Part shown: positions 58,904 to 64,000 of the stretch, in pieces
Layout: each line of letters starts with the position of its first letter
Position numbering within the stretch: position 1 is the stretch's first letter
Source: an uncultured Gemmatimonadales bacterium
Lineage (GTDB): Bacteria > Gemmatimonadota > Gemmatimonadetes > Gemmatimonadales > Gemmatimonadaceae
Direction: 5' to 3'
Assembly: GCA_963701965.1 (NCBI GenBank)
Contig: OY969695.1
Location: forward strand, 2,496,001 to 2,560,000
DNA: 64,000 bases
Notes under the pieces: model-generated
Databases searched by the model: none
What the model was told of the DNA's origin: nothing
Seen by the model: the letters and a program-made list of their open reading frames with translations, nothing else
Made by a program: the position numbers and the translations under genes

Positions 58904-60134
58904 ATGCCTCTCGCCAGCCGCCGTCAGACGGTAACCGCCTCCGTGGGCGGTGTCGCGATCGGATCCGCGCACCCGATCGTCGTGCAATCCATGACCAACA
59001 CCGATACTGCCAATGCCGCCGCCACCGCGGAACAGGTGGTCGCGCTCGCCCGGGCGGGCTCGCAGCTGGTGCGGATTACGGTCAACAACGAGGAGGCCGC
59101 GGCAGCGGTTTCCGGGATCGCCGAACGGGTCGCCGACCTCGGGGTCACCGTCCCGCTCGTCGGCGACTTCCACTACAACGGCCACCTGCTGCTCGCCAAA
59201 TACCCGGCCTGCGCCCGCGCGCTGGCCAAGTACCGCATCAACCCGGGCAACGTCGGCGGCAAACGCCGCGACGAGCACTTCCGGCAAATCGTCGAGATCG
59301 CGCTCGACAACGACAAACCGGTCCGGATCGGCGTGAACTGGGGATCCCTCGACCAGGATCTCCTCACCACCATGATGGATGAGAACGCCGGGCGCAGCGA
59401 GCCGCTCGAATGCGCGCGACGTCATGATCGAGGCCATGATCGAAAGCGGCCTCCGCTCGGCCACCCTCGCCGAATCCGTGGGCCTTGGCCACGACCGCAT
59501 CCTCATCTCGGCCAAGGTGAGCCTGGTGCCGGACCTGGTCGACGTCTACCGCCGTCTGGCGCCCCGCTGCGACTATCCGCTCCACTTGGGACTCACCGAG
59601 GCGGGACTGGGCACCAAAGGGGTGGTCGGATCCAGCGCGGCGCTCGCGATCCTGCTCGGCGAAGGCATCGGCGACACGATCCGGGTCTCCCTCACCCCGC
59701 GCCCGAACGGGGATCGCACCGAAGAGGTCATTGTCGCCCAACAGATCCTGCAGTCGCTCGGTCTCCGCAACTTCACGCCGCAAGTCACGGCGTGTCCGGG
59801 CTGCGGGCGCACGACATCGACCTTCTTTCAGCACATGGCCGAGGACATCCAAACCTATCTGCGCGAGCAAATGCCGGTGTGGCGGGAACAACATCCCGGG
59901 GTCGAGACCATGCGGGTCGCGGTCATGGGATGCGTGGTCAATGGCCCGGGCGAATCCAAGCATGCCAACATCGGCATCTCGCTCCCCGGCACGTTCGAGG
60001 AGCCGAAAGCCCCGGTCTACGTCGACGGCAAACTGGTCGTGACGCTGCGCGGCGAAGGCATCGTGCCGGAGTTTCTGGCCATTCTCGAGGACTACGTCGC
60101 CCGGACGTACCCTGCCGCGATGCCGGTCGCGTGA
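58904..60134 (+). CDS. ispG: HMBPP synthase (MEP pathway); probable 1-nt insertion near 59409
   Basis: [27 protein letters not shown] in one frame. [27 protein letters not shown] and [10 protein letters not shown] in the next. Confidence 0.95.
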
Positions 60135-60856
60135 TCGTCGCGCTCGCTCTTGTCTTCCAAGGACACGTAGGCGCCATCAGCGGGAGCGTGCAGGACACGA
60201 CGGGCGCGCCGCAGCGCGACGCCGCCGTCGAAGTCGTCGGGCTCACGATCTCGGCGCGCACCGACTCCGCTGGCCGATATCGTTTGAACGGCGTGCCCAC
60301 GGGCGCGCAGATCGTGCACGTAGGCCACATCGCGCAACGGGTCACCGTGGTGGCGGACACGGTGGTCGGCGCGTTCTTTTTGGTCCACGAGGTCACCGCC
60401 CCGCACGCGATCTGGAACGGCTGCCAACCGTACCGGACGTGCGCGCTGTTGCGCTACGTGGCGACGTTCAAACAGCACACGATCCCCGCGGGCATCGGGG
60501 TCATCCGCGACGCGGCGACCTGGAACGGATTCCTGGCGCGCTACGCGACAGGGCCGAACGAGAGCATCCGACGCAATGTGATCGACTGGTCGAAGGAGAT
60601 GCTGGTCGTCGTGAGCTACGGCGCCGACACGCAAATGCTGGACCAAGGGGACGGCATCAACCGCGTCGAACGGCATCCCGACCGGCTGACCGTCCTCCTC
60701 GGACCGGACTCGCTCAATGGCCCGAGTCCACTCGGCGCTAATGGTTGGGTGCCCGCCACCGCTATCGCGGTCCCGCGCACGACGCTCCCCATCGAATACC
60801 GCGCCGTGCTGGCCTCGACGCACATCCCGCCGACAGTCGACTGGTCACGGCAGTGA
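60131..60856 (+). CDS. Exported protein with carboxypeptidase-regulatory-like domain
   Basis: [12 protein letters not shown]...[19 protein letters not shown] overlap with ispG. Confidence 0.7.
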
Positions 60857-61933
60857 TGCCGGCGGTGATGCCGGCGGTGATGCCGGCAGTGATGCCGGCA
60901 GTGATGCGATGAAGTCGACGAGATAATTCTTCCACACCGCGGCCAGGGTATGCGTCCCGTGCCCGCGGGTCTGGTCGCTCAACGGCAACAGCACGTATTT
61001 CGCGTGGGGCACGCGGGCGATCAGGGGCTCGATGGCTCCAAGCTCGGGGGGATTGACGGCGTCGTCGGCCGAGTTGATGGCCAGCACTGGCGCGGTGATC
61101 CGCTCCAGATCGGCGGAAGGATCGTAGTCGCGCGAGGCGTCGAGCTGATAGATCAAATCGTTGGCGTCGTCGGCCGCCATACGCGTCTTGACGATCGCGT
61201 TGATCGCGCTGTCGGCGGCGTCGCGCGTCGGTCCGGCCTTCTGTAGCACCAGCGGACTGGATGCCATGATGGACAGGATCCCCATCGCGGCGGTGTAGCC
61301 GGGGGGCTGGCTCCGATACTCGCCGCCCTGGTAAGCGGGGTCGTTCCGGATGGCGTCTATCGCCATCCGCCGCCACATGCGATTGCGCCCCGCGATCTGG
61401 ATAGGCTGACAAGCGAGGGGCACGAGCCCGTCGGCGAACGTGGGATACCGCTCGGCCCACATCCAGCTGTGCATGCAACCCATCGACGTACCCATGATGA
61501 GGTACAGGTGGCGCACGTGCAGGCCGTCGGTCACCAGCCGGTACTCGGCGTCCACCATGTCGGCGTAACCGTAGTGCGGAAACTTGGCGTGCCACCCGTC
61601 GCTGGGTTTGCTCGAGGCGCCGTGGCCGATATCGTCGGGCAGGATCACGAAGAAGCGCGTCGTGTCCAATGGCTGGCCGGCGCCAAACAGCTGCCCGGCG
61701 AAAACGGGACTCATGAACTGGGCGCCCGAGCCGGATGTCCCGTGCATGATCAACACGGCCTTTCCGGTGGACGGGCCGAGGGTGCGATAGTGGATCCGCA
61801 AGGCGGGGAGGCGCTCGCCGTCGGCGAATCGGAAATCGTGGATCGTATAGTCGGCGCCCTGGGCGCTCTGGGCGCTGAGCCGCGACGCGGCCAAGGCGAA
61901 ACCCCACACGGCGACGGCGCGCCAAGCGAGCAT
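60845..61933 (-). CDS. Secreted alpha/beta hydrolase (homoserine O-acetyltransferase-like fold)
   Basis: Signal peptide, [30 protein letters not shown]. Confidence 0.88.
60848..60907. repeat. Five copies of a 12-bp tandem repeat CGGC(A/G)GTGATGC
   Basis: Directly visible at the convergent gene junction. Encodes ASLP/ASPP. Confidence 0.9.
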
Positions 61934-61974
61934 GTGATCTCCCGGGTAGAGGAACGGATATAAGTTGCAGCATC

Positions 61975-62997
61975 ATGCGCGACCGCGTAATGCGCGCGAT
62001 GCTGCTGGAGGCGCCGCGCCAGCCGCTCCACATGGTCGAGTGGGCGGAGCCGACGCCCCTCGATGGGCAGATCCTGATCCACGTGCGGGCGTGCGGCGTC
62101 TGCCGGACGGATGTGCACATCGTCGACGGCGAGCTGCCGAACCCGGCGGTGCCTTTGATCATCGGCCACCAGATCGTAGGAACAGTCGCGGCCCGTGGCC
62201 CGGGCGCCGAGCGGTTCGAGATCGGGGCGCGGGTGGGCGTGCCGTGGCTGGGGTGGACGGACGAGACGTGCCGCTACTGCCGGAGCGGCCGCGAGAACCT
62301 GTGCCCGAATGCCCGCTTCACGGGCTACACGATCAATGGGGGCTACGCGGACGCGGTCACCGCCGATGAGCGCTATGCGGTCGCGATTCCCGACGACTTC
62401 ACGGACACGCAGGCGGCGCCGTTGCTGTGCGCGGGACTGATCGGATACCGCGCCTTGATGGCGGCGGGCGACGCGCGGCGGGTGGGCTTCTACGGGTTCG
62501 GGGCCTCGGCGCACCTCATCGCCCAGGTGGCGCGCTACCAGGGCCGCGAGGTGTACGCATTCACGCGCCCGGGCGATACGACGACGCAAGCGTTCGCCAA
62601 GAGTCTGGGCGCCGCGTGGGCGGGGGACTCGGACACGATGCCGCCTGAGCGGCTGGATGCGGCGATTCTGTTCGCGCCCGTGGGCGCGCTGGTGCCGACG
62701 GCGCTGCGCGCCGTGGACCGGGGCGGGGTGGTGGTGAGCGCGGGCATCCACATGTCGGCCATCCCGTCGTTTCCGTACGCGTTGCTGTGGGAGGAACGGT
62801 CGATCCGGTCGATCGCGAATCTCACGCGACGGGACGCCGAGGAATTCATGGCGCTGGCGCCGCGCGTGCCGGTGCGGCCAACGGTGACGTCGTACCCGCT
62901 GGCCCACGCCAACCGCGCGCTCGCCGATCTGCGCGCGGGCCGCGTGCGTGGTGCCGCGGTGCTCGTCATGTCCGGCACGCCGCGCTTGACACGGTGA
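61975..62997 (+). CDS. Zinc-dependent alcohol dehydrogenase
   Basis: CGVCRTD, GHQIVG, C..C...ENLC, APLLCAGLIGY, GFGAS. Confidence 0.93.
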   Translation: MRDRVMRAMLLEAPRQPLHMVEWAEPTPLDGQILIHVRACGVCRTDVHIVDGELPNPAVPLIIGHQIVGTVAARGPGAERFEIGARVGVPWLGWTDETCRYCRSGRENLCPNARFTGYTINGGYADAVTADERYAVAIPDDFTDTQAAPLLCAGLIGYRALMAAGDARRVGFYGFGASAHLIAQVARYQGREVYAFTRPGDTTTQAFAKSLGAAWAGDSDTMPPERLDAAILFAPVGALVPTALRAVDRGGVVVSAGIHMSAIPSFPYALLWEERSIRSIANLTRRDAEEFMALAPRVPVRPTVTSYPLAHANRALADLRAGRVRGAAVLVMSGTPRLTR

Positions 62998-63002
62998 GCG
63001 AC

Positions 63003-63167
63003 CGTACCTACCGGCAGCGCACCGGCATCCCCGCGTCCCTCGTGGTGGTGGGCTTGGCCGCGAACGATTTCACGATCGCGGATGCGGACGATCCCGCGAT
63101 GCTCGACGTCGTGGGTCTCGATACCACCACGCCGCAGATGATCGCGTCGTTCATGACCGACGGCTGA
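63003..63167 (+). pseudogene. C-terminal remnant of a Ro60/TROVE (Rsr-like) protein
   Basis: RTYRQRTGIPASLVVVGLAANDFTIADADDPAMLDVVGLDTTTPQMIASF resembles the Ro60 vWA C-terminus. No start codon or N-terminal part. Confidence 0.75.
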
Positions 63168-63250
63168 CAACGAAAGAGCCCCGGGAGAAATTCCCCGGGG
63201 CTCTTGTCGTTCGTATGGCGGTGGAACCGCCACGGCCGTCTCGCAAGCAC
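63168..63250 (-). ncRNA. Putative sRNA B, antisense to the neighbouring tRNA
   Basis: TTGACG-N16-TAAAAT promoter (63283-63256). 5' end is 17/18 complementary to the tRNA anticodon arm. Terminator at 63174-63205. Confidence 0.6.
63174..63205. terminator. Bidirectional terminator hairpin
   Basis: AAGAGCCCCGGG/CCCGGGGCTCTT stem. Confidence 0.8.
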
Positions 63251-63321
63251 TTTCAATTTTATATGATTCCACGCCAGCGTCAACGCTGCGGATTACCGAA
63301 TTCTACGATTGCCAACTAGCG

Positions 63322-63405
63322 TACCCGGGACGGGATTCGAACCCGCACGCCCTTGCGGGCAGCCGCTTGCGAGACGGCTGTGTCTACCAGTTCCACCACC
63401 CGGGC
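63322..63405 (-). tRNA. tRNA with tRNA-Leu body and CGC (Ala) anticodon; CCA not encoded
   Basis: Full cloverleaf: GCCCGGG/CCCGGGT+A73, D arm GTGGAACTGGTAGACAC, GCCGT-CTCGCAA-GCGGC, variable arm GCCC-GCAA-GGGC, GCGGG-TTCGAAT-CCCGT. Confidence 0.9.
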
Positions 63406-63481
63406 ACCGTTCACGCTCGGCGAAAACTGGATGGTGCGACACAGATTCATCGCAAGTGCTGCGCGACTAGCTGGCGGCGAA

Positions 63482-63631
63482 CAATGTATCGACCCGATGC
63501 GATTCGCGCATCGTTGTATTTCGCACATCATCATGACCAACAACGAAAGAGCCCCGAGGGACATCCCCCGGGGCTCCACAGCAGTCTCGCACGCACCCGC
63601 AATGTATCGGCACGATGCGATTCGCGCATCG
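63482..63631 (-). promoter_or_regulatory. Duplicated 32-bp promoter/operator (63482-63513 and 63600-63631)
   Basis: 30/32 identical. Each contains the palindrome CGATGCG-N5-CGCATCG and a TACATT -10-like box on the minus strand. Confidence 0.7.
63541..63596 (-). ncRNA. Putative sRNA A, antisense to the tRNA anticodon arm
   Basis: Begins just after TACATT. GCGTGCGAGACTGCTGTG is 16/18 complementary to the tRNA. Terminator GAGCCCCG..CGGGGCTC-TTTCGTTG is homologous to that of sRNA B. Confidence 0.55.
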
Positions 63632-63645
63632 GTGAATGTCACACG

Positions 63646-64000
63646 TCAGCGCGCGGCGACCTCGGCCCCGCGGCGTTCGACATCGTCCGTGGCGAGGCGC
63701 AGCTCGGCGAGGATCGGTGCGGTGAATCCGACCTCGGCGAGGCGATCGCTGAGCTCCCGGTAGTAGCGAATCGTGCCTTCGCGCCCGCGCAACGTCCGCG
63801 TCCAGATGGTCTCGGGATAGTCGGTGCGCCGGAGATCGGCGAGGATGGTGCCGATGCTGTGCAGCGCGTCGGCCGCGCCGACCCAGCGCGAGGCGTCAGT
63901 CGCGATGGCCAGTCGCGTGACGACATCGCGCTTGCGCTCATCGGGCGAGAGCTCGACACCGTTGTCATCCGTCCGCCGCTCCGTCACGGCCAGCGCGATC
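63646..64000 (-). CDS. HD-domain protein, small alarmone hydrolase/Mesh1-like (5' end outside window)
   Basis: VTE...ERK...AADALHS..IL.D....W.R...GREGTIRYY pattern. Confidence 0.65.
   Translation of the reverse strand, partial: IALAVTERRTDDNGVELSPDERKRDVVTRLAIATDASRWVGAADALHSIGTILADLRRTDYPETIWTRTLRGREGTIRYYRELSDRLAEVGFTAPILAELRLATDDVERRGAEVAAR

Follow-up and report, generated by a model that had tools for sequence, protein, structure and literature searches.

A leucine-type tRNA with an alanine anticodon and a downstream sRNA complementary to its anticodon arm: a putative all-RNA toxin-antitoxin module in Gemmatimonadota

Introduction

Why should a bacterial chromosome carry a tRNA with the body of a leucine tRNA and the anticodon of an alanine tRNA, and downstream of it a predicted small RNA complementary to that same anticodon arm? 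The question is raised by the last kilobase of the window analysed here, a whole stretch of 64,000 nt from an uncultured member of the Gemmatimonadaceae (contig OY969695.1, positions 2,496,001-2,560,000; host genome G000, 5.1 Mb, 67% GC). An initial annotation, made from the letters of the window, had proposed a near-consensus promoter driving an RNA antisense to both the anticodon and D arms of the tRNA, and had read this RNA as a constitutive antitoxin. In the reading that we favour, and hold to be fairly probable from comparison of related sequences, the two RNAs would form a hok/Sok-like toxin-antitoxin module made of RNA throughout, the toxin being a Leu-inserting missense tRNA and the antitoxin being the small RNA, called sRNA B. 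The features of the locus are collected in Table 1.

Elsewhere in the window, the gene at 58904-60134 (+), which from its translation we take to be ispG-like, seems to be split over two frames near 59380 by a frameshift or sequencing error, and a short tandem repeat with a 12-nt unit occupies 60856-60908 in the 3' end of an alpha/beta hydrolase gene.

Table 1. Features of the swapped-tRNA locus (positions in the window)
Feature	Position	Strand	Remarks
C-terminal Ro60 (rsr) remnant	63000..63167	+	PF25045, E 2.7e-17; 66% against residues 498-547 in relative G405, which has the full gene
sRNA B, predicted antisense RNA of ~83 nt (putative antitoxin)	63168..63250	-	Ends predicted
sRNA B terminator-like hairpin and U run	63168..63211	-	Adjoins stop codon of the convergent Ro60 fragment
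sRNA B second block, complement of tRNA nt 6-16	63217..63227	-	
sRNA B 5' seed, complement of tRNA nt 24-41 including the entire anticodon loop	63231..63248	-	17/18
Sigma-70-like promoter of sRNA B	63256..63283	-	Conserved in 70/73 modules
tRNA 3' trailer	63311..63321	-	Predicted to pair with 5' end of leader
Class II tRNA of Leu type, anticodon CGC (Ala) at 63369-63371; putative missense tRNA placing Leu for Ala	63322..63405	-	CCA not encoded
tRNA 5' leader	63406..63477	-	Predicted to hide the cloverleaf by pairing with the trailer over 11 bp and with the D and anticodon arms over 35 bp; less well supported
Probable weak promoter region of tRNA precursor	63482..63530	-	-10-like hexamer 63483-63488; one of two 49-nt copies; function inferred
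sRNA A, second, shorter antisense unit	63538..63595	-	63577-63594 complements the anticodon arm at 16/18; terminator at 63548-63577
Second copy of the 49-nt promoter region, ahead of sRNA A	63600..63648	-	86% identical

Results and Discussion

A tRNA whose body and anticodon disagree

ARAGORN labels the tRNA as Ala(CGC). Its body has a long variable arm, A73 and A15-U48, lacks G3:U70, and folds with a 7-bp acceptor stem and a 5-bp T stem. In bacteria, tRNA-Leu identity is set by A73, the long variable arm, A15-U48 and the absence of G3:U70. In the available passages of PMC11028032, A73 and the long arm are given as Leu identity elements for human LeuRS, and the anticodon is described as not read by the enzyme. 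If charged, the tRNA would be a putative missense tRNA inserting Leu at GCG. The genome also has six ordinary Leu tRNAs, an ordinary tRNA-Ala(CGC) and a gene of the PolyA_pol/CCA family.

The disagreement between anticodon and body could be taken to mean that GCG is recoded to Leu, and the adjoining Ro60 remnant could be taken to mean that the tRNA-like element is a Y RNA of the neighbouring Ro60 gene; we find this pair of readings scarcely credible. In 29 alignments to relatives in which no swapped tRNA was found, 291 of 470 GCG sites are opposite Ala and 1.7% opposite Leu, similar to GCC. GTC is opposite Val at 177 of 280 sites and opposite Leu at 7%. Recoding was rejected on the GCG column and the presence of the normal tRNA-Ala(CGC).

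The Y RNA reading has to be weighed against the history of the site. What is left of Ro60 follows an alcohol dehydrogenase gene, to which it is fused, and is the trace of an rsr-rtcB operon that has decayed. G000 lacks the remainder of rsr, the tRNA-like RNAs upstream of it and rtcB, all of which are present in G401, G403, G404 and G405 (with rtcB broken), and neither a TROVE domain nor an rtcB homologue is left in G000. Arrays of two to four tRNA-like RNAs lie upstream of rsr and on its strand in relatives (L249:1461-1950, L250:2580-2860, L253:2650-2990), some of them scored by Rfam as tRNA only, and these are probably YrlA-type Y RNAs. Since such Y-RNA-like elements stand apart upstream of rsr on the rsr strand, the module is separate from them. 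It lies on the strand opposite to Ro60, whereas YrlA RNAs lie on the same strand in the portion of PMC4201824 that describes them, and in G403 rsr is present while leader, tRNA and antisense are all absent together. Orthologues at the rsr-rtcB site carry the anticodons CGC, GGA, GGC and GGC, each with matched antisense.

sRNA B is complementary to the anticodon arm

The promoter-like site was found as first described, with TTGACG (63283-63278) and TAAAAT (63261-63256) separated by a 16-nt spacer on the minus strand. It is the sole site of its kind found in 61000-64000 and agrees with the consensus at 10 of 12 positions, a match that is weak taken alone since shuffled sequences yield 0.5 +/- 0.6 sites. 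The +1 near 63250 is a prediction from promoter spacing. The proposed terminator corresponds to a hairpin at 63174-63205 of -25.9 kcal/mol in the looser fold test, followed by a short U run; a strict terminator scanner made no call at this hairpin. The fold of sRNA B has a z score of -5.7 and its first 11 nt are predicted to be unpaired, in agreement with the exposed 5' seed of the initial annotation.

The complementarity to the anticodon arm, an inverted repeat between 63231-63248 and tRNA positions 63365-63382, is confirmed at 17 of 18 positions, the lone mismatch being A26 opposite C. The claim of complementarity to the D arm stands in part. At this locus the second block pairs with 63390-63400 through 10 Watson-Crick pairs and one G-U, spanning the acceptor end, the D stem and the start of the D loop, and in the free sRNA it is predicted to lie inside a hairpin; across the family, however, a D-side block occurs in only 22 of 73 modules (matching its own tRNA type in 21) and is accessory, the conserved target being the anticodon arm.

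That sRNA B is complementary to the tRNA beyond chance is clear from several comparisons. Its antisense score is 15, a value to be set against 3000 random 130-nt windows of the genome, none of which reaches 13 and two of which reach 12. At up to one mismatch, the 18-mer occurs in the 5.1 Mb only at the tRNA and at sRNA B. Among the 62 ARAGORN calls, some of them spurious, this tRNA is the best predicted duplex partner of sRNA B (-58.0; next -46.6), and co-folding of the two gives a predicted gain of 18.4 kcal/mol.

Furthermore, the genome contains two other modules, at C1:2795461-2795545 (-) (L002, GAC = Val) and 2804589-2804673 (+) (L003, CGC = Ala). Both have a Leu body, with differing anticodon stems, and both are followed at 54-90 nt, on their own strand, by a sequence complementary to the respective arm and then by a hairpin. 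The three paralogues match their own arms at 17/18, 17/18 and 16/16 positions. Among the 62 calls, an antisense score of at least 12 is confined to these three swapped tRNAs (0/59 of the others), and the six ordinary Leu tRNAs score 5-8. Just past the terminator of L003, and also in L234, L236 and L211, a radical SAM gene is preceded by a conserved promoter-like site whose spacer is near-palindromic, a possible repressor box.

Leader, trailer and the duplicated unit

Upstream of the tRNA, sRNA A is probably the leftover of a tandem duplication. The two 49-nt promoter copies (63482-63530 and 63600-63648) contain a near-palindrome, and several modules have an RTGAYG-like hexamer some 20 nt ahead of a -10-like site; together these features suggest that the tRNA promoter may be regulated. 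By inspection, a shared operator was not established in the upstream regions of the modules.

The leader is predicted to fold back on the tRNA, and the evidence for its two kinds of pairing differs. Leader-trailer helices of at least 8 bp occur in 23 of 71 modules, compared with 1 of 25 controls and 20 of 142 swapped combinations. Pairing between leader and arm is not partner-specific (7.14 vs 6.91, with the cognate ranked first in 0/71), and disruption of the acceptor stem in precursor folds fails to separate modules from controls (0.40 vs 0.44). A role of the leader as a partner-specific antisense is unsupported family-wide and was dropped; it stays as a prediction for this locus, together with leader-trailer pairing.

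The suggestion that the antisense could also act in cis, as a 3' trailer of the tRNA transcript, is supported by comparison: 61 of 73 modules lack a terminator between the tRNA and the sRNA, and in 64 of 67 predicted folds of the read-through transcript the anticodon is paired in cis.

The antisense follows the anticodon through the family

The 88 loci collected were reduced to 73 non-redundant modules, 38 of them from genomes (L100 and 37 that were included whatever their score, L221 being left out) and 35 metagenome positives; the modules are related, so that counts over them are not independent. Their 15 anticodons stand for 10 amino acids, and the 5' strand of the anticodon stem has 56 different sequences. 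With 15 anticodons, any tree needs at least 14 anticodon changes. The antisense has followed these changes. In the 72 modules whose best segment covers the anticodon, the three anticodon positions are in Watson-Crick register in 100, 100 and 99% (43, 40 and 58% when shuffled) and the 5' anticodon stem in 83-93%. The predicted duplex energy is -52.7 for cognate and -37.1 for non-cognate pairs, and 50 sRNAs have their cognate tRNA as the best among 73 partners. At the mutS-tonB site the anticodon is CGC, CTC or CAC with the antisense matched, one CGC copy having its antisense shifted to the variable arm. We regard the observed pairing as real and conserved, and at the level of sequence as near certain.

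The antisense also has the parts of a dedicated unit. It starts 39-71 nt downstream of the tRNA in the same orientation. In 70 of 73 modules, in 37 of the 38 of the unselected subset and in 2 of 26 controls, a promoter-like site lies ahead of it (TTG-type -35; A2 and T6 in the -10), the spacer being 17 nt in 62 of 73. A terminator-like hairpin follows in 67 of 73 (6/25 controls), giving a predicted sRNA of median length ~73 nt. The loop complement begins at nt 4-5 of the sRNA in 48 of 64, and the seed is more open than the remainder of the sRNA (0.62 vs 0.28; above 0.7 in only 17). Of the initial reading of sRNA B as a constitutive antitoxin, the comparison thus upholds a dedicated antisense unit with its own promoter-like site and hairpin, while the role as antitoxin stays putative.

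Whole antisense units have been duplicated, as in sRNA A, in the D-arm-only unit of L232 and in the units of other specificity upstream in L070 and L151. Those units, and the one in L040, persist without an intact tRNA of their own, and decay of the module looks toxin-first in these sequences.

Joint change of both parts could also be explained at the level of DNA, if a piece of the tRNA had been copied in reverse and the inverted repeat homogenised by template switching, with no function as RNA. G-U and A-C mismatches, which are about equal, would fit such a repeat: 41 and 35 overall and 23 and 18 when isolated, so that G-U is not enriched, an excess (20 vs 4) appearing in a core window alone that was chosen post hoc. 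We nevertheless hold a mere repeat to be very improbable, since the copy always starts a few nucleotides behind a conserved promoter-like site with its preferred 17-nt spacer, has the anticodon at its centre and runs into a terminator-like hairpin at its end, and since units of promoter, antisense and terminator have duplicated as wholes by themselves.

The tRNA body is as constant as the anticodon is variable. A73 is found in 73/73 modules, A15-U48 in 71/73 and G3:U70 in 0/73, with lengths of 82-86, counts that are to be read with the fact that the search patterns preselected a Leu-type D arm and that most also required U33. In 50 of 73 modules the anticodon reads one of the four commonest codons of G000. 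Four modules have C33 in place of U33 and still carry matched antisense; either they are decaying or decoding is not the point. Such variants would be accommodated if the tRNA-like RNA acted outside decoding, as a decoy for an anticodon nuclease, as a sink for LeuRS or EF-Tu or as an RNA-repair signal, with the sRNA controlling its availability, and so would the one site that lies between rsr and rtcB. A role of this kind seems to us decidedly improbable, as only that one of many sites is beside rsr-rtcB, and as Leu features kept in 71-73 of 73 modules alongside anticodons for the commonest codons are expected if decoding matters, with the above preselection in mind.

A patchy, multi-copy module of chromosomes

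A scan of GTDB species genomes gave at least 120 loci, to which L005 and the three G000 copies were added. By record title or kinship, 31 matches were assigned to the Gemmatimonadota; with a duplicate (L006) and a locus that was not intact (L040) taken out, 30 were left. Among the matches listed, the cognate antisense scores at least 12 in 27 of these 30 swapped tRNAs, and in the other three it scores 9-11 with the anticodon still covered, compared with 0/30 for upstream and 1/30 for sense controls. An intact swapped tRNA without antisense was found once in the phylum (L221), again among the matches listed. Antisense accompanied 0 of 26 normal Leu tRNAs of relatives (one row from the unpublished genome G157 and one from G000) and 9 of 12 non-Leu-anticodon tRNAs in the same relatives, four of which repeat tRNAs already scored in the scan. 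Nine further loci gave eight positives. In metagenomes 46 of 51 intact matches were positive (two dropped), a set that is enriched for positives because the scan demanded a downstream TTGAC.

In other phyla, 92 matches were reduced to 48 by removal of 42 that were not intact and two with short flanks; antisense was found in 1 of these 48 and was absent from 47, among the matches listed, and many of these matches may be register artefacts. One Planctomycetales-labelled genome has two modules, CGC and GAC, both matched, but of 101 Planctomycetota genomes only 1 gave a match. Within the family the module was found in 13 of 121 genomes including G000 (anticodons without a middle A), and a stricter pattern matched 3 of 401 genomes in the phylum. 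The distribution is patchy and multi-copy. L177, L193 and L197 are tandem modules in which different anticodons or stems are adjacent.

No sign of an origin from phage or plasmid was found: viral contigs gave no match to the module pattern, viral tRNAs had antisense in 0 of 12 intact cases (of 24) and in 1 doubtful case of 9, and plasmids gave only tRNA-length matches. Of 74 ORFs extracted from the neighbourhoods 58 were scanned, and these were ordinary mixed genes with one integrase, no synthetase and no shared protein partner. An association with DNA repair or the SOS response, at which the first neighbours hinted, failed in these 58 further ORFs.

The same scans returned Leu-like tRNAs without an antisense unit. 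L155 and L174 have a Leu body with a TTA anticodon and are possible ochre suppressors. Others, in Lachnospiraceae, Bacteroidota and viral contigs, have GCC, GCA or ACC anticodons and imperfect acceptor stems (L036, L056, L267, L272 and L275, also L038, L041, L062 and L113). A third, mostly proteobacterial family has an anticodon loop readable as TTA or AGA in ambiguous register (L019, L063, L095, L096, L101, L111, L126, L129 and L132; L067, L087 and L091).

This distribution bears on whether the module serves its host. A regulated mistranslation switch, in which small amounts of the tRNA would be set free under stress and make the proteome more diverse, the sRNA providing a threshold and not a guard against death, would fit the pairing evidence equally well. 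The loci are chromosomal and lie among ordinary genes, some beside repair genes (mutS, an 899-aa ABC ATPase like uvrA, ruvB and rsr-rtcB), and mistranslation by tRNA-ProX is tied to antibiotic tolerance in the part of PMC10404621 concerned. Since anticodons turn over freely among 10 amino acids, including changes such as Gly, Asp, Glu and Arg to Leu, and since about nine in ten genomes of the family showed no module, selfish specificity fits better than a tuned benefit to the host, and we consider such a switch unlikely.

A model of the module

In the toxin-antitoxin reading, the weak upstream promoter would give a leader-tRNA-spacer-antisense precursor, kept inert by leader-trailer pairing and by the antisense acting in cis. 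This inert-precursor step is the weakest of the model because the pairing of leader and arm shows no specificity for the partner. A stable tRNA would then be freed by slow processing of both ends and addition of CCA, and LeuRS, blind to the anticodon, would charge it with Leu. From the strong internal promoter a short sRNA would be made, whose free 5' seed would invade the anticodon loop, unzip the arm and keep the tRNA off the ribosome. The block would probably be by sequestration rather than by cleavage of the duplex, since RNase III (PF00636) gave no match in 6/6 genomes (G000, G401, G403, G405, G016 and G001, of 92-99% completeness); by this genome search the lineage may be without RNase III. 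If the supply of sRNA stopped, through loss of the locus or shut-off of transcription by phage or stress, the tRNA would outlast the sRNA and proteome-wide Ala-to-Leu errors would arrest growth. Through re-dialling of its anticodon arm, each module would become insulated from antitoxins already resident.

For the model speak the three paralogues with matched antisense, the anticodons that favour the commonest codons, the patchy, multi-copy distribution and the apparent toxin-first decay. Toxicity of natural missense tRNAs in E. coli is described in parts of PMC5389517 and PMC10404621. In yeast, GC-rich anticodons on tRNA-Leu tend to be more harmful, with growth of the CGC variant at 54%, in passages of PMC11028032 that also report no overall link between codon usage and harm, which counts against the model. 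So do the lack of G-U enrichment over A-C, the four C33 variants, the missing link to mobile DNA, the leader-arm and acceptor-stem results and the 47 of 48 pattern-matched tRNAs of other phyla without antisense.

On a broader view, and here we see the chances as even, the family could be a widespread, protein-free and re-programmable weapon directed at the genetic code, a module of ~300 bp in which a tRNA rewrites one of the commonest codons as Leu and an anti-anticodon sRNA is the antitoxin. In such a weapon, on which we are evenly divided, the anticodon arm would be payload and address at once, having been re-dialled for 10 amino acids with 15 anticodons or more. If true, shut-off of transcription as the trigger would lead to addiction or to abortive infection via proteome-wide mistranslation. 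The module would explain how undamaged cells come to have tRNAs with mismatched body and anticodon, annotated as ordinary tRNA-Ala or tRNA-Arg. Furthermore, the question of why bacteria keep mistranslating tRNAs becomes testable, as both parts are below 100 nt and there are many natural cognate and non-cognate pairs, and the module suggests a natural means by which suppressor tRNAs could be switched on and off in engineering of the genetic code. Antisense control of a miscoding tRNA would be new even if the two are not a toxin-antitoxin pair.

Comparison with known systems

The module is apparently undescribed so far. A literature that took in few subscription papers describes neither a dedicated antisense gene against a tRNA anticodon, nor such an sRNA coupled to a tRNA whose body and anticodon disagree, nor a tRNA as the toxin of a toxin-antitoxin pair; the tRNA lists in the supplements of PMC5389517 and PMC10404621 could contain such tRNAs. 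The word antisense is absent from the main text of PMC5389517 and from the text of PMC10404621 as available.

At this one locus, the module resembles the YrlA Y RNA (PMC4201824, in part) in being a tRNA-like RNA beside a Ro60 gene. YrlA is found within 4 kb of Ro60 on the same strand, whereas the tRNA here is on the opposite strand and has a full cloverleaf with an anticodon arm, and most modules are not near Ro60. The allo-tRNAs of Mukai et al. (main text of PMC5389517) are likewise natural missense tRNAs with disagreement between body and anticodon, are toxic in E. coli and occur near toxin-antitoxin systems. Their acceptor branches are 8/4 or 9/3 and their identity is that of Ser or Ala tRNAs, in contrast to the 7/5 fold and Leu features here. 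The tRNA-ProX family (PMC10404621, as excerpted) is also natural and bacterial, with one body and several anticodons, mistranslating and growth-slowing; it has Pro identity and a dedicated ProRSx gene, whereas the present family has a Leu-type body, 15 anticodons, a cognate antisense and no shared protein partner.

Type VIII toxin-antitoxin systems are defined, in the relevant passage of PMC10767807, by partners that are both RNAs and encoded within 200 bp of each other, and at the level of sequence the two parts of the module are adjacent in this way. No homology to creTA or SdsR-RyeA was seen, the Rfam matches in the window being tRNA only. In creTA, which was set apart by its description in the sources seen in part, CreA acts through CRISPR Cascade and CreT sequesters tRNAs, while here the putative toxin is the tRNA itself; in SdsR-RyeA, as partially described, the partners lie on opposite strands, and here on the same strand.

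The nearest model is hok/Sok, in so far as the portion of PMC1635323 concerned describes it. The module differs in that its target is a tRNA and not an mRNA, with no protein toxin and no shared ORF partner, and in that the strand of the tRNA also carries the antisense, as a copy farther downstream and not as an overlapping gene on the opposite strand, in a lineage in which no RNase III was found in 6/6 genomes. What the two have in common is a short antisense RNA with a strong promoter, a free 5' tail, a terminator hairpin and a loop as its target, and, as predicted here, an inert precursor with paired 5' and 3' ends that needs processing.
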